53,717 nt of DNA, taken from IMG/VR virus record IMGVR_UViG_3300042997_001874, positions 1 through 53,717 of that record; one strand, 5' to 3'. The stretch comes from a virus. Its lineage: Duplodnaviria; Caudoviricetes. Shown here piece after piece: positions 4,838 through 47,513 of the stretch (position 1 is its first letter; the number at the start of each line of letters is the position of its first letter). The notes beneath the pieces were generated by a model. That model ran no database searches, was not told where the DNA came from, and saw nothing but the letters and a program-made list of their open reading frames with translations. The position numbers and the translations under genes were made by a program.

Positions 4838-5251
4838 ATGAAACCCAGCGAACTAAAATCATTTATTAAAGAAGCAGTTAGAGAAGCTATCCAAGAGGAA
4901 CTAAAAGATATCCTTTTGGAAGCAGTCCGTGCTCCTAAATCACCAATTCAGGAAACTTATCAAGGAACCCCCATTGGAGTTGGGGGAACGGGAGTTACTA
5001 ATACAACACTATCCTCTAATGGAACTACTTCATTAACCTCACAAAAATCAGCTACCGAAAAAAGAGCTATGATGGAAAGTATTATGGGAGATATGCGAAG
5101 AGGACAAGATACTCTTAACTTTACTACTCAAAATATAGCAGCTAATACTCTACAAATAACCCCGGGTATGAATACCTCAGGAGATGGGTCAAAATTACCA
5201 GAGGGTAATGTTGGTTTAGATATGATTATGGGATTAATGGGCAAGAAATAA
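4838..5251 (+). CDS. Hypothetical protein with an MKxSELKxxIKE leader
   Basis: N-terminus MKPSELKSFIKEAVREAIQEE is shared with ORFs 22974 and 38030. Confidence 0.55.
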   Translation: MKPSELKSFIKEAVREAIQEELKDILLEAVRAPKSPIQETYQGTPIGVGGTGVTNTTLSSNGTTSLTSQKSATEKRAMMESIMGDMRRGQDTLNFTTQNIAANTLQITPGMNTSGDGSKLPEGNVGLDMIMGLMGKK

Positions 5252-17854: not shown

Positions 17855-20395
17855 ATGGAAAAACAAATTTTAAGTGAAGAGTTCATTCGCATGCAAAGGC
17901 TTGCGGGGATTGAAATTCAAGCACAAGAACCCATATTAGAAGAAATTTTACTAGAAGCTTTTATTGAAATTTACTGTTTAAAAAATAATTTATTATTAGA
18001 AAGTCTTGACGAATCTCTAATAGGTAAATTAAAAGATAAAATTAAGAAACTTAATATAAAACCTACAATAGGTCTTGTTGCCTCTATGTTAAAAGGGTTA
18101 AAAAATGCTTTAACTGATGAGGGGTACCAAAAAATTATAAAAATAGTTAAAGATTATGATGGACCTAAAAATATATCTCAAATAAAAGATTATCTTATAA
18201 AAAATCTTGATATACCTAAGGAAAAATTAGACGAAAAAATATTTACAAATAAAAAAGGAAATCCTAATACTTTATCAAGATCAATACTTTTTAATTTAAT
18301 ATTTATTATTCTTTTTAATTTAACTTCTAGTTCATTCTTATCCCAAGCTCAATCCAGCATGGATAAATTTGATGCTCCTATAGAAAAAGAAATTTCAGTA
18401 AAAGATGCTACTGAATTAGAATTAGGTGATTCTACTATAAATGCTCTTGAAAAAATAAGTGATGAAGTTAATACACCAATAGGGGGAGATACCGGAGGAG
18501 ATACCGGGGGAGATATCGGAAATAATTCAGTAACTGTTGATGACACTGGAAATGTTATTAAAGTGGGTTTTGATACAGGAGAATTTGAAATTGGAGATGT
18601 AGATAAAGTTGCTAAAAAAGTAGCTGATGAAATTATAAAAAAAGCTGGAGGTAAAACAATTGTAAAAATTGATTTAGAAGTAGAAGGTCTGATATCAAAT
18701 ACACCTGGAGAAGGAGATAATAATCCTAATGGGCCTGATAAAACGGGATTAGCTGAAAAACGCTTAGAAGTTGCTAAAAAAATAGCTGATGAAGTAAAGC
18801 TAGAGCTTGAAAAAAAATATTCTGGGATTAAAGTTAGCATTAAGGATGGAGGTACTAATGTAAATAATACTGGGGAAGAAGTAGAAGTAGGTTCTAAAGA
18901 AGCAAAAGATAAGGAAGCAGCATCTTTTACTATTTTAGATATAGAAACAGAAAAAGAAACAACAATAGATACACCCGATAGTCCTTTAACTTATTTTAGA
19001 AGACCTAAAGATTTAATGCCTGATGGTAACAAATATTATACTATATTAGGATATTTCTTACCATTAATTACAAATGATAAACAACCTTCAAAAGAATTTA
19101 TGAAAATTCTTAATATGAAAGAAGGAGATGTTATTAATGATAGTTTTATTAATAAAAAAATTGAGGAACTTCGTACTCAATATCCCGAAGGTAGTCCTAA
19201 AGTTAAAGAAGCAAAAAAAGCAATACAAATTTTATCTTGGGCACAAAAAGTTAAAAAGAATCCTAAATCTATTGGAGAATTTATAAAAAATTTAGATCCA
19301 AAAATTAATATTCCTTGGGAAAAACGTGTACTTCTTAGACCTGGTGAAAAAGGCAAAGCTGCATTTACTGGGGGTTCTAAAACCACTCAAACTCCGACTC
19401 CGGGATCTCAAGCTCAGGATAGGCTAAGGACAGGCGGCCGGAGTACTCCTAATCCTACACCCAATGATTTACGTGATTTAGGTGAGATTAGGTTAGCTAA
19501 TATATATGAAAATTTACTTTTTGAAGCACAAGCATCAGAATGGAAATCTCTCCCAGATTATAATGAATCTACTGCTAAAAGCAATTTAGGTGAACTAGTT
19601 CCTTTATATGTTTATATTTGGGATATAGGAGATAACGGAGCAATAAAATATGTATCTGGTATAAATGATGATGGTAGTCAAGCTAAAAATGTCCCCTATA
19701 AATTAAGTTGGGAAAAATTTACAACTAAATACCCAGTCCTTGATAAAAAAACAAATGATTATCTTTTTAATGTAAAACCTTCAGAAGATCCTAAAAAACA
19801 AGGTGAACCTAGTAAGTCTAGCAGTAAATCAGATAATATTCCTGTTAAGTTTGATAAAGAAACAGATAAAACAAAGAATACATCTGAAACTAATAGGATA
19901 ATTACGGCTATTAATAATAATTCTAGTATTAAAACGGCTCTAAGTAAAATAGATAATGTAGAAGAATTTAAACAGTTAATCTTAATTTTACTTTTAGATA
20001 AACTTCCAGTATACAAGGATAATAGACCGGCTCTAAGAACAGCACTTTCAAAAATACAAGCTAGAATTCAACTTCGTAATCAAAAGGGACAATTTATTAA
20101 ACTTCAAGAAGAGGATGCTTCTGATGTAATTAGGCTTGAAGATCTATTAGATGATTCTGCTGCAACTCAATTAAGAAATGAGCTTAAAAATATTAATACA
20201 GAAGAAGAAATAATACAAATAATTGTAAGAGCTATTATTCCTTATTTGAACCCTAATTTAAAAAATAGTACCCAAAGCTTAAAACAAGCCATTATTAGAG
20301 CTCAGGCGGATTTTGATAAAATGTCAAAGTCTTCGGGTGATATAGATTTAAAAGAGCTTTTTGTGAAAGCACTTAGGGAATCATCAAGTCGGTAA
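17855..20395 (+). CDS. Large hypothetical protein with a scaffold-like N-terminal motif, one TM segment and a possible OmpA-like domain
   Basis: FIRMQRLAGI at the N-terminus; ILFNLIFIILFNL hydrophobic stretch; FDTG...VEGLIS...LAEKR resembles OmpA C-terminal motifs. Confidence 0.5.
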   Translation: MEKQILSEEFIRMQRLAGIEIQAQEPILEEILLEAFIEIYCLKNNLLLESLDESLIGKLKDKIKKLNIKPTIGLVASMLKGLKNALTDEGYQKIIKIVKDYDGPKNISQIKDYLIKNLDIPKEKLDEKIFTNKKGNPNTLSRSILFNLIFIILFNLTSSSFLSQAQSSMDKFDAPIEKEISVKDATELELGDSTINALEKISDEVNTPIGGDTGGDTGGDIGNNSVTVDDTGNVIKVGFDTGEFEIGDVDKVAKKVADEIIKKAGGKTIVKIDLEVEGLISNTPGEGDNNPNGPDKTGLAEKRLEVAKKIADEVKLELEKKYSGIKVSIKDGGTNVNNTGEEVEVGSKEAKDKEAASFTILDIETEKETTIDTPDSPLTYFRRPKDLMPDGNKYYTILGYFLPLITNDKQPSKEFMKILNMKEGDVINDSFINKKIEELRTQYPEGSPKVKEAKKAIQILSWAQKVKKNPKSIGEFIKNLDPKINIPWEKRVLLRPGEKGKAAFTGGSKTTQTPTPGSQAQDRLRTGGRSTPNPTPNDLRDLGEIRLANIYENLLFEAQASEWKSLPDYNESTAKSNLGELVPLYVYIWDIGDNGAIKYVSGINDDGSQAKNVPYKLSWEKFTTKYPVLDKKTNDYLFNVKPSEDPKKQGEPSKSSSKSDNIPVKFDKETDKTKNTSETNRIITAINNNSSIKTALSKIDNVEEFKQLILILLLDKLPVYKDNRPALRTALSKIQARIQLRNQKGQFIKLQEEDASDVIRLEDLLDDSAATQLRNELKNINTEEEIIQIIVRAIIPYLNPNLKNSTQSLKQAIIRAQADFDKMSKSSGDIDLKELFVKALRESSSR

Positions 20396-22173: not shown

Positions 22174-22977
22174 ATGATCTCACTGATCCAATTACTTAAG
22201 GAGGTACAGGGCGCCCCCAAAGCTATTATTTTAGCTGGGGCACCGGGTGCTGGTAAATCATCTGTTATAGATGATATTATCAGTGACCTTGGATTGAAGG
22301 TAATGAACATTGATGATTTCTTTATTAAAAACCTTCGCGACGCAGGCATTTCACTTGATTTGAAAAAAGCAGATGCTGAAGGTAGAAGTGGGGCAGCTAA
22401 AGCAATGGCCGCCGCTCAAAAAGATTATCAAGCATCTCTAGCTCAAGAGATTGGCTCTAAAGGAAACATCGTAATCGATGGTACAGCCGCCTCATACAAT
22501 AAAACAGAACAACTAAAAAATACTTTAGAGGCAGCAGGCTATGATGTGATGATGGTATTTGTTTATTCCTCGTTAGAGAAATCACTTGAAAAAAACGAAG
22601 ATAGATTTGAGCGTTCAGCAGGTAAAGATAGAAGTTTAATGCCAGCTATTGTAATGCAAACATGGGCTAATGTAACTAAAAACTTTATCCCATACCTTAA
22701 TTTATTTAGCAATAATTTCGTAGCAACTACAAAAGACAAAGATCCATTTAGTAAAAAAAGTTTAGAAGACATTATAGACCGCTATATTGATCCATACCGT
22801 CCTACTGACACTAAAGAAAAATCAGAAAAAGAAATAGCTAAATCTAGAGCTGATAAAGAAAACCTTGAACAAGAGATCATATCGCTACGCGATAAACAAA
22901 ACGTTCAGGACATTATACAACAAACCGTTTCTATTCCAGAAGCACAAACAAAAATCAAACAATTCCTTAACTCATGA
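22174..22977 (+). CDS. Zeta-toxin/AAA_33-like P-loop kinase with an N-terminal leader
   Basis: PKAIILAGAPGAGKSS, NIDD, NIVIDGT, GYDVMMVFV, EKNEDR; leader MISLIQLLKE. Confidence 0.72.
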   Translation: MISLIQLLKEVQGAPKAIILAGAPGAGKSSVIDDIISDLGLKVMNIDDFFIKNLRDAGISLDLKKADAEGRSGAAKAMAAAQKDYQASLAQEIGSKGNIVIDGTAASYNKTEQLKNTLEAAGYDVMMVFVYSSLEKSLEKNEDRFERSAGKDRSLMPAIVMQTWANVTKNFIPYLNLFSNNFVATTKDKDPFSKKSLEDIIDRYIDPYRPTDTKEKSEKEIAKSRADKENLEQEIISLRDKQNVQDIIQQTVSIPEAQTKIKQFLNS

Positions 22978-23330
22978 AAACATCTGAATTAAAATATATT
23001 ATTAAAGAAGCTCTTGAAGCATCACAAATGGAAATGATAGAACCAATTGATGAGATTGGTACTTTCATGATCGTAAAAAAACCTAAAAAAGGTATGGCTA
23101 TGGAAGATATGATGCAAGAAGTATCTATTTATGATTCAATCATGAAAGAAGAAATCATCATGGCTACTACAAATAAATCAGCTGCTCGTAAGCGCGCTAA
23201 AGAAGCCCTTAAAGAATACGAGATGCAGAAAAATACTCTTAAAAAAGAAATGGAAGAGTACAGAGCAGCTAAAAAAGCTATTGAAGAAAAGAAAACTAAA
23301 GCAAAAGAGCTTATTAATAAGCTTAGATAA
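22974..23330 (+). CDS. Hypothetical basic coiled-coil protein with an MKTSELKYIIKE leader
   Basis: ORF track; shared leader. Confidence 0.55.
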   Translation: MKTSELKYIIKEALEASQMEMIEPIDEIGTFMIVKKPKKGMAMEDMMQEVSIYDSIMKEEIIMATTNKSAARKRAKEALKEYEMQKNTLKKEMEEYRAAKKAIEEKKTKAKELINKLR

Positions 23331-23331
23331 A

Positions 23332-26300
23332 TTGGACGAGTTAACTAAGTTTCTGGTTAGGGAGCTAATAGACGGGCAATCCGTCACAGCTATCTATGGT
23401 GGGGGGTTCAAACCTCCCACTAAAGGTCACTTTGACTTAGTTAAAACAGCTTTAAAAGATTTTAAAGACATAGATAAATTTATAATCTATGTTGGAAGTG
23501 GTGTTCGAGACGGAATCGAGCAAGAACAATCTTTACAAGTATGGGATATTTACAAGGAATTACTTCCATCCAAAGTTCAAATAGAACCATCAGCTACCCC
23601 TATTGGCGATATAATGCGCTATGCTAAAAACCACCCAGACGAAAAAGTATATTTTGTAATTGGTTATCGTGAGGGTAGAGAGGATGATTTAGATGATATC
23701 AAAAACCGCACTAAAGGGGTAGAAGAAAAATACCCTAATTTAGAGGTTCGAGTAATCAAAACCCCATCGGGTGATATGAGCGGAACAAATGCTCGTAAAG
23801 CACTTAAAAAAGGAGATAAAGAACAATTCTTTACTTATTTACCTACTGAAGTACCAGCTAACGAGAAAGAAGATATCTACAATATTTTAGAACCTACTGT
23901 TTTTAAAGAAGGGTCTTGCGGTTACGATATAGACGCTAAAACCGGTAAACAATTAGCTACACCTGGTGGTTTAGAGGAAGCAGATCCTAAAAAAGGAACA
24001 GGTAAAAAACCAAAAGGATCATCTCGTAGATTATACACTGATGAAAATCCAAGCGATACAGTTAAAGTAAAATTCTCTACTAAACAGGATATTATAGATA
24101 CATTTTCTAAAGCATCTTTTAAGTCAAAGCCACACGCTCGCAAATCTCAGGTAATTAACTTAATTCACCAACGTGTTAGAGCAGCTTACGAGAGAGCAAA
24201 AGACCCTGAAGTTAAAAAACGTTTAAAAACTGCTTTAGATTATGCCGAACAGAAAAAAGAAGCATCTAAAGAAAAAACACAACGTTTAAAAAAAGAAAAC
24301 GTAGCACCTAATCACGATGGTAAATCAGCTCCATTCGGTTCAGGATATAAAACAGTAAAAGAAAGAACAGCATCTGGTAATCCACCCCGCTACAGAGCTA
24401 TTGAAAAAAGAGGAGATAAATACTACTATATTCAAGACAACCCATTTGCTCCTGGTATTAGACAAGAATTTGGTCCCTATAAAACAAAGGAACAGGCTAA
24501 GAAAAAAATGGGAACATTCCCACCATCTCAAAACTATAGAGATATAACAGAAAACACTATCCCCTCAATCGATATACTCGAAAAAATAGCCGAGTTAACT
24601 AATTACATGCGTGGGAAAGGGTACAATATTGATCCAGTCCCCAGCATTAAGCTAGTAGGTGATGATGTGGATAATGCTGAGAAATTCCTGGGTAGAACCG
24701 CGTACTATGATAATGACAATAAGTCTATCACCCTATACACTTACGGGCGTCATCCCAAAGATATTGTGCGTTCTTTCGCGCATGAGATGATTCACCATAT
24801 CCAAAACCTGGAGGGTAGATTAGGAGATGTATCCACTACAAACACTTTAGAGGATGATCATATCAATGATCTTGAAAAAGAAGCTAATCTAAAAGGTACA
24901 ATGACATTCCGTAACTGGACTGATAGTATTGAAGAAGATGGTCAAAAAACATCCAATAAAAATATGGATGATTATAAAAAACAAAATAATCCAAGTGGTA
25001 AAGTAAAAGATCCTTTTGGTTTAAATCAATATGCTCGTGAGTTAGCTCAAGGTTTAGAAGAAGAACAAGTAAACGAAGGTCGATACGATAAACTCACTAA
25101 CGAACTTTCTAGTTTTGCTTTCGAGTTAATGAAAGACGGATATGATGTTGGTAAAAAAGTAGTAGACGAGTTATTTGTAGTAGGACCAGCAGACGAGGAA
25201 GTAGATTTTGTCTCTGATGAGTTTGAATTTGACTTTGTAGTTCAAGCAATCTATACAGACGACACTTACAAAGTAGGTGGAGGTGCTAACGCAGGATTTG
25301 ATGCTAAAAGGAAAAGAATTCAACCTCTCCTTACCGTTAGATTTGAAATCCCAAAAGATATAGATTGGCAGACAGTCTCATTTGATCTAAAGGACGTTAT
25401 AAGACACGAGCTTGAACACCTAACACAAGATGGTGAAAATCTAAAAGGTGGAACAGATAGTGATGATCCTAGGTTAGTAAGACCTAGCAAATATATGGAA
25501 GATGATGAATTCATCAGAAATCTAATTGATGTAGATTTGCTCCCTAAGTCAGACTATTTTAAATTAGAAAAAGAAGTAGATGCGATGCTTCAAGGTCTTT
25601 ACTTTAAGGCTAAAAAATCTCGTAAACCTTATTTAGAGGTTATAGATGATTACTTAGATAAACAACCAGTTAACCCTCAAGAAAGAAAAGAAATTCTTGA
25701 TTTATGGGCTAAAAGAGCAAAAGCTTTAAGTTTACCTTCCTTTACCAGTGCCTACGTAAAAGAGTCCTCATACCTTTACGATACGGGTGTTAAAAAAATG
25801 GATAAGGAAATGGGAGAGAAGAAATATGTGATATTTTGTGACATGGACGGTGTGTTAGTAGATTTTGATAAAGGGTATAAAGATTTAACCGGTTTATCTA
25901 CTAAACAAGCCGACGCTCAAGGTAAAAGTGAATTTTGGAAGTTATTTGGAAAAAGTTTAAAAGAAAAAAACATATCCGATAAATCATATTGGGCTAGTCT
26001 AGATTGGATGCCCGATGGAAAACAACTTTGGGACTATATTAAAGGATATAACCCATATGTTTTAACCGCCCCTTCTGTTAATTTTGATATCCCATTTGAA
26101 GATCGTTATAAGTTAGAAAACAATGAATCAATGCAAGGTAAAACCGAGTGGGTTCAACGTTTACCTAATATGCGTAAATTATATTTCCGTTCTGCTGGTA
26201 GAAAAGCCGACTTTGCAGGTCCCGATAAAATTTTAATTGACGATAGAAAAGATACTATCGATTCATGGAATGCTAATGGTGGTATAGGTATACTTCACAC

Positions 26301-26346
26301 ATCGGCTGCTAACACAATCAAACAGTTACAAGATTTAGGTTTATGA
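23332..26346 (+). CDS. Multidomain (poly)protein: HIGH-type nucleotidyltransferase, basic domains, two HExxH zincin domains, HAD 5'(3')-nucleotidase-like
   Basis: YGGGFKPPTKGH and MSGTNAR (cytidylyltransferase-like); HEMIH at 24781; HELEH at 25405; FCDMDGVLVDF at about 25840 and ILIDDR. The start is probably TTG 23332, just after the upstream stop (the track gives 23281). Confidence 0.72.
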   Translation: MDELTKFLVRELIDGQSVTAIYGGGFKPPTKGHFDLVKTALKDFKDIDKFIIYVGSGVRDGIEQEQSLQVWDIYKELLPSKVQIEPSATPIGDIMRYAKNHPDEKVYFVIGYREGREDDLDDIKNRTKGVEEKYPNLEVRVIKTPSGDMSGTNARKALKKGDKEQFFTYLPTEVPANEKEDIYNILEPTVFKEGSCGYDIDAKTGKQLATPGGLEEADPKKGTGKKPKGSSRRLYTDENPSDTVKVKFSTKQDIIDTFSKASFKSKPHARKSQVINLIHQRVRAAYERAKDPEVKKRLKTALDYAEQKKEASKEKTQRLKKENVAPNHDGKSAPFGSGYKTVKERTASGNPPRYRAIEKRGDKYYYIQDNPFAPGIRQEFGPYKTKEQAKKKMGTFPPSQNYRDITENTIPSIDILEKIAELTNYMRGKGYNIDPVPSIKLVGDDVDNAEKFLGRTAYYDNDNKSITLYTYGRHPKDIVRSFAHEMIHHIQNLEGRLGDVSTTNTLEDDHINDLEKEANLKGTMTFRNWTDSIEEDGQKTSNKNMDDYKKQNNPSGKVKDPFGLNQYARELAQGLEEEQVNEGRYDKLTNELSSFAFELMKDGYDVGKKVVDELFVVGPADEEVDFVSDEFEFDFVVQAIYTDDTYKVGGGANAGFDAKRKRIQPLLTVRFEIPKDIDWQTVSFDLKDVIRHELEHLTQDGENLKGGTDSDDPRLVRPSKYMEDDEFIRNLIDVDLLPKSDYFKLEKEVDAMLQGLYFKAKKSRKPYLEVIDDYLDKQPVNPQERKEILDLWAKRAKALSLPSFTSAYVKESSYLYDTGVKKMDKEMGEKKYVIFCDMDGVLVDFDKGYKDLTGLSTKQADAQGKSEFWKLFGKSLKEKNISDKSYWASLDWMPDGKQLWDYIKGYNPYVLTAPSVNFDIPFEDRYKLENNESMQGKTEWVQRLPNMRKLYFRSAGRKADFAGPDKILIDDRKDTIDSWNANGGIGILHTSAANTIKQLQDLGL

Positions 26347-29341: not shown

Positions 29342-29783
29342 AAAATAAAATGAGCAATTTTGACCTTAAAAAATACCTCGCCGAAGGTAAACTATTAAAA
29401 GAAAATGAAGGGTTTAATGTTGATCTTTATTATGATAAAGATGAAGATCTAGTTGATTTAGATGCTGCTTTTAAGGCTGCACCTAATATATCTTATAATC
29501 AAGTATTAGACATTTTTAAGAGTTATGAAGATGAAGAGATATTAAATGATTTTAAATCTGAATTTCCTGAAGGAAAAGATATTAGTAAAGAAGATTATTT
29601 TGAATTCTCAGAGAGATATATAGATGATATGAGTGAAACTAGTTTTATAAAGGCTAATTGGATAGGCGTATCTGATGATACAGTTTATGAAAAAGCTGGA
29701 TTAGTTTAAATATTAAATTAAAAAATAAAATGAGCAATTTTGATCTTAGAAAATATTTAGCTGAAGGTAAACTATTAAAAGAA
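29342..29783 (+). repeat. Imperfect direct repeat of about 62 bp (29342-29403 and 29722-29783) covering the start context and an 18-codon leader
   Basis: aaaataaaATGAGCAATTTTGAyCTTArAAAATAyyTmGCyGAAGGTAAACTATTAAAAGAA; 6 mismatches in 54 coding nt. Confidence 0.85.
29350..29709 (+). CDS. Acidic hypothetical protein with an MSNFDLKKYLAEGKLLKE leader
   Basis: First 18 codons are near-identical to ORF 29730. Confidence 0.6.
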   Translation: MSNFDLKKYLAEGKLLKENEGFNVDLYYDKDEDLVDLDAAFKAAPNISYNQVLDIFKSYEDEEILNDFKSEFPEGKDISKEDYFEFSERYIDDMSETSFIKANWIGVSDDTVYEKAGLV

Positions 29784-30089
29784 GCAATAATAGTAGACAC
29801 TGCTATAATGGTAGATCCAAATAATGCTCTTATGTCTAATGCTTCAGATGAAGAAATAGATTATATAAAGGCTAATCTCACTAATGTTTCTAAAATGCCA
29901 GTTGATGATTTTCAAGAAAAATATGATAAGTATATGCTTAAATTTTACGATGAAGGCGATTCATTAGATACTCAAGTTAAAGCTTTGCAAATTCATATTG
30001 ATAAAGGTATTTTAAATAGAGAAGAAGCAATAGAAGCCCTTGCAACGTTACAAGGACAAGATGTAGAAGAATTTGAAGATATATTCTAA
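29730..30089 (+). CDS. Acidic hypothetical protein with an MSNFDLRKYLAEGKLLKE leader
   Basis: Shares the leader with ORF 29350 but the body is unrelated. Confidence 0.6.
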   Translation: MSNFDLRKYLAEGKLLKEAIIVDTAIMVDPNNALMSNASDEEIDYIKANLTNVSKMPVDDFQEKYDKYMLKFYDEGDSLDTQVKALQIHIDKGILNREEAIEALATLQGQDVEEFEDIF

Positions 30090-42871: not shown

Positions 42872-43738
42872 ATGAATATCAAACACTCGAAATATAAAAA
42901 TACGGGCATTCTATTTGAATTGCTGGTACGCCAAGTAACAGCTGACACCCTTAACGGTGATCAATCTCCCGCATTAAATATTATTAAGAAATTTTTTGTT
43001 AAAAGCGAATTAGGTAAAGAACTCAAATTATATGAGACTTTAACTAAAAGTAAAAAAATAAACGAATCTCGTTCTAATTTACTTATCCAAACTCTATTAG
43101 AGTCATCTAAAAAGCTTAACAAGAAAACGCTTAAAAGAGAAAAATATAATCTTATTAACGAGATTAAAAAACACTATAATTTAGATGAGTTTTTTAAGAC
43201 AAAACTTCCTAACTATAAAACACAAGCTGCTTTTTATACACTAGTTGAAGCACAAAGCTCAATAGAGATGATCAGTCCTGATCAAATTGTAGCTAATAAG
43301 TATAGTATTTTAGAGCACTTAACACTGGGACCAGTTAACCCAGAAAAAGTAAAAGACGAGGTTTTACAAGAATTCCAAACATACGATAAGGACATAAGAA
43401 TGTTAACCTATAAAATTTTATTAGAGAAATTTAACGGTAAATATTCAGATTTACACGAATCACAAAAAGAGGTACTTAAAGAATTTATCACATCAGTTGA
43501 TTCAACCCCCAAGCTAAGAACATTCTACAATAATAGAATCCAGCAACTTAAAGAAGAGTTAGCTATTATTAGCAATACTATAGCAGATAAAGCTGTTCAA
43601 ATTAAGTTAAACGAGGTGTTACCTCTTATAGTTGAGATAGAAAAAAATCAACCCATCAGAAACGAAAATATAGTTGATTTACTCCAATACTGCGAACTCG
43701 TAGAAGAACTTAAATCAGCTCATGGGTCCTCTATTTAA
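42872..43738 (+). CDS. Hypothetical head-module protein (possible prohead core component)
   Basis: Lies between portal and protease; helical; KHSKYKNTGILFELLVRQ. Confidence 0.55.
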   Translation: MNIKHSKYKNTGILFELLVRQVTADTLNGDQSPALNIIKKFFVKSELGKELKLYETLTKSKKINESRSNLLIQTLLESSKKLNKKTLKREKYNLINEIKKHYNLDEFFKTKLPNYKTQAAFYTLVEAQSSIEMISPDQIVANKYSILEHLTLGPVNPEKVKDEVLQEFQTYDKDIRMLTYKILLEKFNGKYSDLHESQKEVLKEFITSVDSTPKLRTFYNNRIQQLKEELAIISNTIADKAVQIKLNEVLPLIVEIEKNQPIRNENIVDLLQYCELVEELKSAHGSSI

Positions 43739-44297
43739 CAAAATTCGGGAAATAGTTAGAGGTAGAAAGTTTATTCTTACCCCTACACCCGGAGGCGAAG
43801 AAAACGAATCAGACGTAACATATGTTCCTGATTTTGAAATTCTTTTAGCAGACATTAATCGCGCTTTAGAAACTCTTAGAGCAATTGCTACTGATCCCCA
43901 GGTAATAAATGACCCTAAATTTGGAGAAATATATAACCAATTTAGAGTTTTAAGAAATAATCTTAGAACCCACATGCGCACCAAATACCCTTCAGAATAC
44001 CAAAAGATTAAAGGTATGTTTGAAATGAGTGGTACTGGTGGTGGTGCCGGAGCCGGATCATTCTCTCCTGGAACTGGTGGTCAATATGCTACCCCATTTG
44101 CTTTTAAAAAGATGGGAAAACAAGAATTACCTGAAGCCTCCCTAGGTGCATCATTAGGTAAGGGACCCAAAGCAGGTCCTAAAGGAGTAACAAATAACTA
44201 CTATACTAAAAACTTTAAGTATAAACTGGTTAATCCCGTAAAATTAGCGGCCCAATCTAAGGCAGTAGATACTAAATACCTCTGGGGAAAACCTTAA
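43722..44297 (+). CDS. Hypothetical head-module protein
   Basis: ORF track; Gly-rich segment after MFE. Confidence 0.5.
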   Translation: MGPLFNKIREIVRGRKFILTPTPGGEENESDVTYVPDFEILLADINRALETLRAIATDPQVINDPKFGEIYNQFRVLRNNLRTHMRTKYPSEYQKIKGMFEMSGTGGGAGAGSFSPGTGGQYATPFAFKKMGKQELPEASLGASLGKGPKAGPKGVTNNYYTKNFKYKLVNPVKLAAQSKAVDTKYLWGKP

Positions 44298-44825: not shown

Positions 44826-45500
44826 ATGAAAACCCTACAAGAACAATTCAATCTAATCCAGGAAGGAAAAGGACATAAAGATATGTTCTTAAAATCCGCT
44901 CGTAGATTATTCCCAGAATATTTAACAAACTATGCCTCCTATAATGAGGTTACTACCATTTTAAAGCAAAGAGGTGTTTTAAGTGAAATAATTGTAGGTG
45001 GTGGTATTGTTACTCAACGCACTTTTGATCCATTTAAGGCATTTGATGCATACGTAAACGAAGAATACACAGTAGCTGGTGGCGTTGGTAAAACATATGC
45101 TGCCCAACAATTAAACCCAGTTTCTGCTCCTAAATCCCAAGGTGCTCAAACTACTAAATCGGTAGAAAAGAATCTATCTAAAGAGGTAGCAGATCGCCAG
45201 GAAATGGCTGGCTATGATTATAGTAATGAAAAAAATATTGACAACGTATATGGTCAAGAATTTTTAGAGGGATACTACGCGGAGATGAAAGATCCTAAAA
45301 ATGTTGATAAAACAATAGATGAATTAAAAGACATTGTTAGAAAAAATTTAGTTAAAAATTCTTCATACTATGTAGAGAATGCCGCATTTGGTATTAAAGG
45401 GATTGGTTATACAAAATCAGCACCTGGTTTAGGTGAAGGAGAACCCGCTAAAGGCAAATACAAAGCCAGCGGATATGGTGATTTACCTAAGAAAAAATAA
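44826..45500 (+). CDS. Hypothetical head-module protein
   Basis: MKTLQEQFNLIQE leader, reminiscent of the T4 internal-protein targeting sequence MKTYQEFIAE. Confidence 0.55.
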   Translation: MKTLQEQFNLIQEGKGHKDMFLKSARRLFPEYLTNYASYNEVTTILKQRGVLSEIIVGGGIVTQRTFDPFKAFDAYVNEEYTVAGGVGKTYAAQQLNPVSAPKSQGAQTTKSVEKNLSKEVADRQEMAGYDYSNEKNIDNVYGQEFLEGYYAEMKDPKNVDKTIDELKDIVRKNLVKNSSYYVENAAFGIKGIGYTKSAPGLGEGEPAKGKYKASGYGDLPKKK

Positions 45501-46108
45501 TGAAACAAGTATTAATTGAAACCCAAGCGTTTCAGGTTAATCCTGTTCAATTAACTGAAGGTACTAAATCTCCAGCAGGCAACCCCATTGTAGAAGGTAT
45601 TTTAGCTACGGCTGAAGTTAAAAACGGAAACGGCCGTTACTACAAAAAAGATCTATGGCAACGCGAAATAGATAGATACATGGAAGTTGTTAAAGAAAAC
45701 AGAGCAACAGGTGAGCTAGACCATCCAGACTCCTCTATCATCAATCTTAAAAACGTATCTCATATTATCCGAAGTATCTTTTGGGATGGAGACCACGTAG
45801 TAGGAAAGATAGAAATACTACCAACTGTTTCAGGTAATATTTTAAAAGCATTAATTGAAAATAATGTTCAAGTAGGTGTTTCTTCTCGCGGTATGGGTTC
45901 TTTAAAACAAATGAGTGAAGGTACACTAGAGGTACAAGACGACTTTGAACTTCTATGTTGGGATTTTGTTTCTACACCTTCCAATCCAGGTTCATATATG
46001 CACTTAGTGCGCGAAGGAAAAGAATACAACACAAGTAACCATTACAGTAAAGCAAGTGGAATTTTAACAGAAATTCTATGCGCTAAGGGCACCTGCCCTA
46101 TTATATAA
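45500..46108 (+). CDS. gp21: Prohead core protease (T4 gp21-like)
   Basis: KNGNGRYY, GELDHP, NVSH, GVSSRGMGS, WDFVSTPS. Confidence 0.95.
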   Translation: MKQVLIETQAFQVNPVQLTEGTKSPAGNPIVEGILATAEVKNGNGRYYKKDLWQREIDRYMEVVKENRATGELDHPDSSIINLKNVSHIIRSIFWDGDHVVGKIEILPTVSGNILKALIENNVQVGVSSRGMGSLKQMSEGTLEVQDDFELLCWDFVSTPSNPGSYMHLVREGKEYNTSNHYSKASGILTEILCAKGTCPII

Positions 46109-46187: not shown

Positions 46188-46289
46188 GACATAATATGCT
46201 ATCCTTATATAGCATTTACAAATATATAAATTCCGATTACGGTTGAATAAATAACCGTACCCCCCAAATCAAATTTTGTGGATAAAACA

Positions 46290-47513
46290 ATGGCGAATAG
46301 AAACCTATTGAAAGAAGCTATTGCTGATGCTAAATCTGTTAAAGAAGCAGCCATCGCAAATGCTAAAGCCGCTCTTGAGGAAGCTTTTACACCATACCTA
46401 AAGGAAAAATTTTCTGCCAAATTAGCAGAAATGGAAACCGAAGAAGGTATGTATTATGAAGACGACAAAGAGATGGAAGAAAACTACAGCGAAGGAGAAG
46501 TAGAAGAAATGTCAAACTATACCGAAGAAAAACGTACTGAAAAGATGCGTGAAAAACCTGAAGTAGAAGAGATGGATCTTGACGAACTTTTAGCTGAACT
46601 CGATGAGGAAATGAGTAAAGAAAAAGAAATGGAAGAAACTTTAAACGAAGCTGAAGAAGAAACCGAAGAGGAAGAATCTGAAGAAGTTGAAGGTGAAGAG
46701 GACGATGAAATCGACCTTGAAGACATGACTGAAGACGAGCTTAAAGACTTAATCGAAGACGTAATCGCAGACATGGTTAGAGCTGGTGAGCTCGAAGCCG
46801 GTGAAAAATTCGAAGACGAAGAAGACGACGAAGACGACGAAGAAATCGATTTTGAAGAAGAAGACGAAGAAGAAATAGTATCTGAAAGAAAGCACTACGG
46901 TGGTAGTAAAGAGAATATTCCTTCTGCTAAGCGTGGTAAAATTAAAAAAGACACCGCTGAAGAAGAAGGCATTGCTGACTATGAAAGATCTAAGAAAAAG
47001 ATGGACGAAGGAGTAATAGATAAGTTAAAAGATCTTTACACTGATAAAGAATTACTTTCTAAAATCATTACTATTGACGGTGAAAAAGTATCTATTCAAG
47101 ATCTTATTAATTTAGTAAAATCAGGAGCTCCGGCTCGTGAAGGTATGAATAGAACTGAAGACGAAATGGATGAAATGAAGAAAGAAATTGAAGAATTAGC
47201 TTCAACACTTTCTGAAACTAAACTTTTAAACGCTAAACTTCTTTATACTAACAAAATCTTCAGAGCTAAGAATTTAAACGAAACACAAAAAGTAAAGGTA
47301 TTGGAAGCTTTTGATAAAGCTGCTTCCGTAAGAGATGCTAAACTTATCTACGAGACATTAACCACAGTTAAGGAAACTAAAACTGCTGTTACTGAATCAA
47401 TGAGAGGTATGGCCTCAAAAGCGGCAGGTATGGCTCCAGAAAAGAAACCAATCCTTGAGGTAAACGATCAATTCGCTAGATGGCAAATCTTAGCGGGTAT
47501 CAAAAGAAATTAA
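46290..47513 (+). CDS. Prohead scaffold/core protein (gp22-like)
   Basis: Very acidic coiled-coil protein between the protease and major capsid genes; LLKEAIADAK, LLNAKLLYTNK. ATG 46290 is preferred over GTG 46278. Confidence 0.8.
   Translation: MANRNLLKEAIADAKSVKEAAIANAKAALEEAFTPYLKEKFSAKLAEMETEEGMYYEDDKEMEENYSEGEVEEMSNYTEEKRTEKMREKPEVEEMDLDELLAELDEEMSKEKEMEETLNEAEEETEEEESEEVEGEEDDEIDLEDMTEDELKDLIEDVIADMVRAGELEAGEKFEDEEDDEDDEEIDFEEEDEEEIVSERKHYGGSKENIPSAKRGKIKKDTAEEEGIADYERSKKKMDEGVIDKLKDLYTDKELLSKIITIDGEKVSIQDLINLVKSGAPAREGMNRTEDEMDEMKKEIEELASTLSETKLLNAKLLYTNKIFRAKNLNETQKVKVLEAFDKAASVRDAKLIYETLTTVKETKTAVTESMRGMASKAAGMAPEKKPILEVNDQFARWQILAGIKRN

Follow-up and report, generated by a model that had tools for sequence, protein, structure and literature searches.

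The stretch of DNA analysed here, called the window below, comprises the 53,717 nucleotides of IMG/VR record IMGVR_UViG_3300042997_001874, a 53.7-kb phage contig with a T4-type head module that encodes a large terminase, a portal (PHROG 213), a prohead protease (PHROG 207) and a major capsid protein (PHROG 138). We examined one long gene of the plus strand, which an earlier note, written from the letters of the sequence, had read as a polyprotein in which a nucleotidyltransferase (NTase), two zincins and a HAD nucleotidase are joined at [ILVF]-x-E sites and separated by the prohead protease. The open reading frame (ORF) is uninterrupted over 23281..26346 and would encode 1021 amino acids (aa) from a TTG at 23281. 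The likely start is the TTG at 23332, directly after the upstream TAA (23328-23330); the gene caller picks this codon, and most relatives start at the equivalent point (M-[ND]-x-L-T-K-F-L-V). The resulting continuous frame, 23332..26346, gives a protein of 1004 aa with a computed mass of 114.7 kDa, matching the ~115 kDa first proposed, and all residue numbers refer to this form. The gene is surrounded by replication and nucleotide-metabolism genes and preceded by those for a primase, an exonuclease and a kinase; the kinase, an upstream neighbour at 22174-22977, belongs to the Zeta-toxin family of P-loop kinases (Pfam PF06414, E 4.6e-15). DNA nearly identical to the window was not found among cultured phages. 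Metagenomic relatives of the protein amounted to 3578 matches at 90% clustering among 8000 scored candidates, and to 5891 clusters at 50% identity (E<=0.001). The parts of the gene, and the protease proposed to act on its product in trans, are as follows.

23332..23364, plus strand: N-terminal leader, aa 1-11 (M/L-DELTKFLVRE), amphipathic helix ending V-R-E; candidate capsid-targeting and cleavage peptide
23365..23910, plus strand: HIGH-type (T-K-G-H) adenylyltransferase, PPAT/NaMNAT-like, aa 12-193, ends VFKE
23911..23979, plus strand: optional 23-aa spacer peptide (GSCGYD...GGLEE), aa 194-216
23980..24297, plus strand: basic helical 'LYTDENP' domain, aa 217-322, isoelectric point (pI) 10.2, ends LKKE
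24298..24363, plus strand: mobile 22-aa peptide 'pep1' (NVAPNHDGKSAPFGSGYKTVKE), aa 323-344
24364..24552, plus strand: optional 63-aa block, aa 345-407, with a three-stranded beta domain (353-404), ends DITE
24553..24936, plus strand: zincin 1, aa 408-535, HEMIH at 484-488, ends SIEE
24937..25077, plus strand: linker with the conserved helix peptide 'pep2' (KDPFGLNQYARELAQGLEE) and EQVNE, aa 536-582
25078..25764, plus strand: HExxH domain 2 ('zincin 2'), aa 583-811, HELEH at 692-696, ends YVKE
25765..26346, plus strand: flexible pre-segment (aa 812-830, ends MGE829), HAD domain (DMDGV at 837-841) and stop codon
45500..46108, plus strand: prohead protease, Peptidase_S77 (gp21 family), proposed trans-acting protease

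Domains and linkers of the chain

To the extent that an AlphaFold2 model of the full chain can show it, the modules fold independently and are connected by flexible joints. The model, built from a 64-sequence alignment, contains six folded domains: NTase (16-191), basic (217-322), small beta (353-404), zincin 1 (405-537), second HExxH (583-811) and HAD (831-1003). Its mean predicted local distance difference test score (pLDDT) of 73 and its predicted template modelling score (pTM) of 0.31 indicate domains that are confidently folded and have no fixed mutual arrangement. Sequence libraries recognise only the two ends of the protein, the NTase weakly and the HAD domain.

The domains named in the earlier note were largely recovered. 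Structural comparison of the NTase in VIA returned the PPAT 4nah (Z 17.2, root mean square deviation (rmsd) 2.3, 154 residues aligned) and the NaMNAT 3h05 (Z 15.2), and Foldseek gave a match at E 3e-7. The match in sequence is weak: a cytidylyltransferase-like hit around T-K-G-H reaches 16.7 bits against a Pfam cut-off of 21, and the NCBIfam scores for NaMNAT (26.5 bits vs 112) and PPAT (24.6 vs 103) also lie below their cut-offs. The domain has the (T/H)xGH motif, an ISST-like SGTxxR motif and a Rossmann-like fold, with near-invariant G24, F26, K27, P28, P29, G32, H33, S150, G151, T152 and R155. As no family model scores above its cut-off to assign a substrate, we place the domain in the HIGH-motif superfamily only. 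At the other end, PHROG 2643 (5'-3' deoxyribonucleotidase, E 4e-25), a PDB profile match to mitochondrial 5'-nucleotidase (E 1.7e-4) and the structural matches 3bwv (Z 13.8) and human cdN (Z 12.2, both VIA) identify the HAD domain as 5'(3')-deoxyribonucleotidase-like; Pfam NT5C was not reported for the polyprotein at E<=1. Near-invariant residues are D837 and D839 of the DxDGV nucleophile motif and the distal pair D970 and D971. The basic domain is helical, as claimed (helices at aa 240-322 in the model), and is placed differently along the chain in relatives. Neither it nor either HExxH domain belongs to a family found by Pfam, NCBIfam or PDB sequence-profile searches.

The claim of two zincins was borne out by half, fold matches being obtained for the first only. 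For zincin 1 we searched with a separate 434-aa two-domain model. In a wide VIA search all 50 matches listed aligned to the zincin 1 region, three of them extending beyond it, and nearly all of those listed are zinc metallohydrolases. The best matches were Wss1 (Z 7.9, rmsd 4.2, 103 residues aligned), PprI/IrrE (7.7), SprT (7.3) and ArdC (6.5), so that every Z against Wss1, SprT and ArdC is below 8, and Pfam reported no metallopeptidase family at E<=1. GRHPKD, HExxH and a later E-x-E-A are invariant across relatives. A Wss1/SprT/ArdC-like zincin fold is thus supported for the modelled domain, at moderate Z. In HExxH domain 2, R-H-E-x-E-H is invariant, as is a Glu in a helix further downstream, and the elements follow a zincin-like order (beta sheet, HExxH helix, helical subdomain). 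VIA searches with the two-domain model gave no fold match to this domain, the match lists being filled by zincin 1. Foldseek on the same model returned nothing at E<=0.001, with DNA polymerase beta and kanamycin nucleotidyltransferase among its low-probability rows (probability 0.04-0.13), and hhalign paired the two HExxH domains over only 14 columns around KD[IV][IV]R..HE..H..Q at a probability of 5%, too little to call them homologous.

The remaining parts are short. The leader helix (aa 2-13 in the model) stands before beta1, with V-R-E at residues 9-11. The spacer at 194-216 has pLDDT<50 and is missing in relatives in which VLKE leads straight into GDPK.GTGKK. The peptide pep1 likewise has pLDDT<50 and directly follows the NTase in forms of 786-812 aa. 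The small beta domain has strands at 353-360, 363-369 and 377-383. The peptides pep1 (24298-24363) and pep2 (24937-25062) both contain P-F/Y-G, as ..SAPFGSGYK.. and ..KDPFGLNQYARELAQGLEE; both are short, highly conserved and mobile, and accompany varying neighbour modules. Docking motifs and protease exosites are two possibilities for them.

Joints and module exchange among relatives

A modular chain with glutamate joints under selection is well shown by the comparisons that follow. All seven junction sites listed in the earlier note lie where it had put them: VFKE193 (nucleotide 23910), GLEE216 (23979), TVKE344 (24363), DITE407 (24552), SIEE535 (24936), QVNE582 (25077) and YVKE811 (25764). 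We found further junction sites at LKKE322, GLEE577 and MGE829 and, N-terminally, at LVRE11. Segments with pLDDT<50 cover residues 191-239, 321-350, 406-411, 535-582, 707-719 (a loop) and 806-830. They hold all seven listed sites plus LKKE322, GLEE577 and MGE829, so that the expectation of independent domains with disordered linkers at these sites was borne out by the model. Leaving out the MDE at residue 3, the protein contains 16 [LIVFM]-x-E sites, nine of which fall within the 181 of 1004 residues with pLDDT<50 (binomial p 7e-4). Conservation is 0.82-1.0 at six of the seven listed sites and at E577, compared with 0.36-0.64 for sites inside folded domains; at GLEE216 it is only 0.56 over 25 aligned rows. 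AIE358 was considered as a further junction, with 41 alignments starting at residue 359, and was rejected because it lies within a beta strand.

To see what precedes each module elsewhere in the family, we tabulated the residues before seven conserved module-start motifs in 269 family proteins, counting unique contexts. Glu occupied P1 before HExxH domain 2 in 94 of 96 contexts, before zincin 1 in 75/75, before a Zn-ribbon in 19/19 and before pep1 in 21/21; for the 'VGEA' start, the pre-HAD start and the 'NILANII' start the counts were 17/17, 33/34 and 10/10. P3 was L, I or V in nearly all tabulated contexts except those of pep1, and P2 was usually N, T or K. When contexts were collapsed at <40% identity over 20 aa, Glu stood at P1 in 122 of 123 distinct ones, which come from related sequences and are not independent events; the background frequency of Glu is 0.081.

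Relatives mapped by BLAST show sharply bounded modules, and at every junction inspected the upstream piece ends x-x-Glu. E193 is the exact end of 84 BLAST alignments from relatives. In most relatives the NTase (1-193) is followed directly by pep1 or zincin 1, and a common 786-aa form is devoid of residues 194-396. Inserts after E193 include a GIY-YIG domain and a 112-aa module to which no assignment was made, while an Fe/Mn superoxide dismutase (SOD) is found inserted between the basic domain and pep1. Compared with 25 partner sequences, the optional 63-aa block is an indel with exact E...E boundaries. The linker at 535-582 is the main hot spot for insertions and takes up inserts of 110-165 aa, each x-x-E-bounded, among them DUF6934, a Zn-ribbon, the 'NILANII' module and a 150-aa helical module. 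A Zeta-like kinase is a further inserted module. HExxH domain 2 is replaced or absent in relatives P0025, P0036, P0093, P0099 and P0112. As the earlier note had anticipated, domains are gained, lost, replaced and reordered exactly at the xxE junctions; an architecture invariant across relatives, which it had named beforehand as the outcome that would speak against it, was not found, at least 47 regex-defined architectures being present among the 269 proteins. By the same definitions, both Z1-Z2 and Z2-Z1 orders occur, the basic domain lies before, between or after the two, the NTase is always first and the HAD domain always last. A loose HExxH regex finds zincin 1 in most of the 269 proteins, and it is also present in a reduced 385-aa chain on contig G003 and in 3/3 contigs tested.

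Automated comparisons point the same way with less resolution. Internal BLAST alignment ends carry Glu at the last aligned residue at a frequency of 0.20 (901 of 4510 unique contexts, vs 0.081 in the background) and a hydrophobic residue at -2 at 0.30, which is supportive but blurred. An insertion test on chains of high-scoring segment pairs, run with a placement tolerance, found 112 of 375 clusters to be E..E-bounded in at least half of their members, against 33.9 expected from shifted windows; this result is positive but noisy because the insertion lengths are imprecise.

Leaders, the prohead protease and the proposed cleavage

The strongest independent support for a cargo polyprotein cut by the prohead protease is provided by modules of the chain that occur elsewhere as stand-alone genes. 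Stand-alone HAD, SOD, basic-domain and Zeta-like kinase proteins start with a leader of 9-12 aa that ends hydrophobic-x-Glu. Among 120 shorter HAD homologues listed (58-97% identity), 78 are stand-alone, 73 of them with such a leader and five without; of the others, 37 have long N-termini (fused forms or fragments) and five lack DxDG. The leaders of the 73 (MIKLxDILKE, MPNLLDLYE and similar) place hydrophobic-x-E at residues 7-16. On contig L016, separate genes encode the basic domain (MIKLVDILKE) and a superoxide dismutase (MINLIQLLTE). On G003 the HAD domain is encoded on its own, with a leader, next after the gene for the 385-aa chain (NTase, Zn-ribbon, zincin 1). The window's Zeta-like kinase begins MISLIQLLKE, and the same domain is internal in the 1547-aa relative P0190, which also contains an Fe/Mn SOD; there it stands behind a Glu joint. 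The same domains thus come either with a leader of the clip-off type or behind a Glu joint. In its motif, the polyprotein's own N-terminus, MDELTKFLVRE, is a leader of this type, and 88 of 108 unique family N-termini have hydrophobic-x-E in the extension.

The only cultured relative found, Flavobacterium phage vB_FspM_immuto, retains the gene order primase, exonuclease, hypothetical protein, 907-aa "NMNAT" (gp088) and, as a separate gene, a 199-aa nucleotidase (gp087), which begins MKKVMGNLADLLLEE immediately before the HAD core. Its gp088 (L001 3263-6896, together with gp089) has an extra N-terminal module of ~290 aa with a GDLDI-type motif, and this module resembles the preceding gp089 (GDIDLAL). 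Judged by eye, this paralogy suggests that a polymerase-beta-like nucleotidyltransferase was duplicated ahead of the HIGH-type one.

A protease of the gp21 family is encoded in the window. The ORF at 45500, which the earlier note had called a protease, encodes in 45500-46105 a Peptidase_S77 (Pfam PF03420, E 1.3e-26, 93.7 bits vs a cut-off of 27; PHROG 207, E 2.3e-56). All five polyprotein-carrying IMG/VR contigs tested have a homologue of it, as does phage immuto (45% identity). The available text of one source gives the T4 gp21 motif as L/I-X-E with the cut after Glu (PMC9026906), and the junction consensus [LIV]-[NTK]-E agrees with it. The N-termini of the window's capsid protein, scaffold and protease bear similar sites, for example QLTE↓G and LILE↓N. 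The ORF at 43722-44297 (191 aa), between the portal and prohead protease genes, has a module of ~67 aa in common with P0190 (36% identity, E 2e-10). This module, which ends ..RTKYP.[EQ]Y..IK and could be a prohead-core docking module, is similar to a helical module found before HExxH domain 2 in many relatives.

Taken together, we favour a capsid-loaded cargo polyprotein that is cut by the prohead protease, and give this reading a probability of roughly 0.6. The chain would consist of independently folding enzymes on flexible linkers, each linker ending [L/I/V]-x-Glu, with a basic domain that looks DNA-binding-like. It would be recruited into the assembling prohead through its N-terminal leader, short conserved linker peptides or both. 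There the gp21-family serine protease (45500-46108) would cleave behind every junction Glu in the way that T4 gp21, itself active within the prohead, does at L/I-X-E; small peptides would exit the head, while the released enzymes would remain and enter the host with the DNA. The injected enzymes might then act at once on nucleotide- or NAD-type metabolism or on host defences. The parts of this scheme differ in strength. Cleavage of the chain at its joints is likely; that it takes place in the prohead and that the S77 protease performs it is what the identity of the motif and the leaders lead us to infer. Entry into the prohead, retention in the head and the physiological roles of the enzymes are presumptive, and injection with early action in the host is suggested by analogy.

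Several observations weigh against this reading. The other seven hydrophobic-x-E sites lie inside folded domains, in helices or strands, and would need protection from cutting, and LKKE322 breaks the strict motif with a K at P3. Glu precedes the start of the basic domain in just 43 of 61 contexts (15 have K), and the residue before the pep2 start is K in 43, G in 13, N in 8, S in 6 and E in 5 of 83, and Glu stands one position earlier in 45 of 83; both starts were left out of the 123-context count because their regex offsets are ambiguous. An exact-placement indel test on global pairwise alignments of 42 representatives gave exact E...E boundaries in 43 of 340 events, and was dropped since many 12-22-aa indels lie within domains and similar junction tetrapeptides shift gaps. 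Both automated indel tests are much weaker than the motif tabulation, and the tabulation itself counts related sequences. The leader extension is absent in ~20 of 108 unique N-termini, and its Glu site is conserved at 0.57. The gene is placed among replication genes (primase, exonuclease), away from the head genes, and zincin 1, present in most relatives, could be the processing enzyme instead. In the literature we found neither a virion proteome of a carrier phage nor a family member with observed cleavage, packaging or injection.

We therefore weighed three other explanations. The best of them, which we nonetheless consider unlikely, is an uncleaved 115-kDa multidomain enzyme whose joints are leader relics of gene fusion or a linker or recombination convention. 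Its setting among replication and nucleotide-metabolism genes would suit such an enzyme, and no cleavage product has been observed. Fusion and fission of neighbouring genes are frequent, the HAD domain being separate in immuto and G003, and the kinase separate in the window and fused in P0190, so that junction motifs could descend from leaders. However, the joints are short (ILTE↓N, EQVNE↓G) and retain the Glu motif only, with no rest of a leader, and as the most conserved hydrophobic-x-E sites (0.82-1.0) they argue that the motif itself is under selection. Internal modules are freely reordered, which, together with the pTM of 0.31, speaks against a fixed multi-enzyme assembly, and the leaders on stand-alone genes would be left to explain.

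Somewhat less probable again is self-processing, in which one or both HExxH domains would cut the joints in the cytoplasm, before packaging or after delivery, without involvement of the prohead protease. The Wss1/SprT/ArdC-like fold of zincin 1 (Z 6.5-7.9), its invariant catalytic residues and its presence in most family proteins, in the 385-aa G003 form and in the three contigs tested would all fit. The available part of the study of polyvalent proteins proposes autoproteolytic release by metallopeptidase domains (PMC5512222). Yet leaders with the same motif stand on genes that have no zincin of their own, for which an enzyme acting in trans would be needed anyway, and some regex-defined architectures have neither HExxH domain (NT-HAD, NT-basic-HAD, basic-HAD), although some of these may be fragments. 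Moreover, Glu at P1 with Leu, Ile or Val at P3 is the documented signature of gp21-family serine proteases, and it is not known as one of Wss1/SprT-type zincins.

A last reading, very improbable, has the prohead protease cut a chain that mainly fills the prohead core or scaffold, or supplies internal peptides, with its fragments expelled or degraded during maturation. In its favour, the T4 core proteins gp22, gp67 and gp68 are cut to short fragments that exit the head, according to the accessible text of PMC5694885, and one module of the family has a homologue encoded between the portal and protease genes. Against it, divergent relatives keep the catalytic residues of the NTase, the HAD domain and both HExxH domains invariant or nearly invariant, which argues for working enzymes rather than filler.

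Precedents and further leader-bearing genes

The closest precedent for the proposed cargo polyprotein is T4, with its internal proteins IPI, IPII, IPIII and Alt. As in the chain described here, their N-termini bear a short leader that ends hydrophobic-x-Glu, and the genome also encodes a protease of the gp21 family (Peptidase_S77). As far as the available parts of the sources go, the T4 capsid-targeting sequence is an N-terminal peptide of ~10 aa that ends in Glu, is removed by gp21 and loads beta-galactosidase fusions (PMC8442874, PMC9026906); T4 cargo is unrelated to head structure and includes the enzyme Alt, and its leader is portable between unrelated proteins (PMC9026906, PMC8442874, PMC3012670). 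An Asp in place of the final leader residue stops processing in T4 and leaves targeting intact (PMC9026906). T4 cargo proteins come from individual genes and are trimmed at their ends by one or two cuts, whereas here a single chain holds up to a dozen modules, and cutting at its internal junctions would yield several mature proteins. The polyprotein has no sequence similarity to the T4 internal proteins.

Many head-internal proteins of the giant phages phiKZ, 201phi2-1 and SPN3US, with ejection and inner-body proteins among them, are cut by the prohead proteases of these phages after Glu, at S/A-X-E or A-X-E and often at several sites, and long propeptides of giant phages act as targeting signals, by the accessible text of PMC9026906 and PMC5694885. 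As described there, the multiple cuts strip propeptides from one mature protein and do not release several enzymes from one chain, and P3 is small (S/A/G) in giant phages, whereas it is L/I/V here. A phrase search of a 2023 paper on SPN3US (PMC10052503) found nothing on internal cleavage.

The present chain also resembles the polyvalent proteins that Iyer, Burroughs, Anand, de Souza and Aravind described in phages and conjugative elements (2017; PMC5512222), which are large and have unrelated enzymatic domains in highly variable arrangements. The part of that study at hand describes a zincin-like metallopeptidase of the ArdC/SprT kind and proposes delivery with the DNA and processing into pieces, by autoproteolysis; it describes no prohead-protease motif at domain junctions. 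By Pfam, none of the polyvalent hallmark domains (ART, MuF, DdrB-ParB, ArdC-N) was found in the window protein and six relatives, and the gene context here is replication, whereas that of polyvalent proteins is head or conjugation. No account of enzyme polyproteins whose joints are prohead-protease sites turned up in our literature search. RNA viruses and retroviruses offer a further parallel in polyproteins of the Gag-Pol type: a single translation product enters the particle, and the viral protease divides it at linker sites into functional proteins. Realm, protease fold and cargo are unrelated to those here, where the modules are accessory enzymes and no replication or structural core, and the comparison is an analogy only.

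If the joints are indeed cut in the prohead, tailed phages would share the polyprotein approach of RNA viruses and retroviruses. A variable set of enzymes, encoded by one gene and loaded in one targeting event, would reach the host at infection, before phage gene expression, and the known repertoire of injected phage proteins would widen to nucleotide- and NAD-type enzymes, superoxide dismutase and kinases. Cassette exchange would explain how such cargo evolves, and a natural leader-plus-joint grammar for packaging foreign proteins could serve engineering.

A broader proposal, to which we give slightly less than even odds, is that aquatic T4-like Bacteroidota phages use a general cargo code, in which a few leader classes of 9-12 residues and [LIV]-x-Glu joints direct capsid loading, release by the head protease and injection of a large, fast-changing enzyme set. 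That set would comprise adenylyltransferases, nucleotidases, superoxide dismutase, Zeta-like kinases, GIY-YIG nucleases and zincins. Polyproteins would then be evolvable cassettes to which modules are added, and from which they are dropped or moved, at joints with no need for a new targeting signal, and the phage head would be a programmable carrier of enzyme mixtures, at a scale well past that of the T4 internal proteins.

Leaders of the types described are found on other genes as well. Four otherwise unrelated window ORFs, starting at 22174, 32838, 33784 and 51378, have the common leader M-I-[KS]-[LF]-x-x-[IL]-L-[KT]-E (MISLIQLLKE, MIKLLQLLTE, MIKLSDILKE and MIKFADILTE, respectively), the type seen on the stand-alone HAD, SOD and basic-domain genes of relatives; their products are candidates for further capsid cargo. 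A second class, M-K-x-S-E-L-K-x-x-I-[KR]-E, begins the window ORFs at 4838, 22974 and 38024 (MKPSELKSFIKE, MKTSELKYIIKE and MKMRISELKKAIRE), which encode small proteins of no known family; one of these genes lies directly upstream of the polyprotein gene. The tandem paralogues at 29350-29709 and 29730-30089, each of 119 aa and the first with no family match, have the common N-terminus MSNFDL[KR]KYLAEGKLLKE with two hydrophobic-x-E sites. An 846-aa ORF at 17855-20395, which has no family match, begins ..EEFIRMQRLAGIE, a start that resembles the C-terminus of the scaffold, ..DQFARWQILAGIKRN (46278-47513); a gene on L016 begins with a similar leader, MKPILNEQLARMQKLAGIITE. On the same contig, at 2032-2971, three tandem small genes begin MKKSELKQLIKE or near variants of it (MKKSELRQLIKE, MKKSELKQLIRE).

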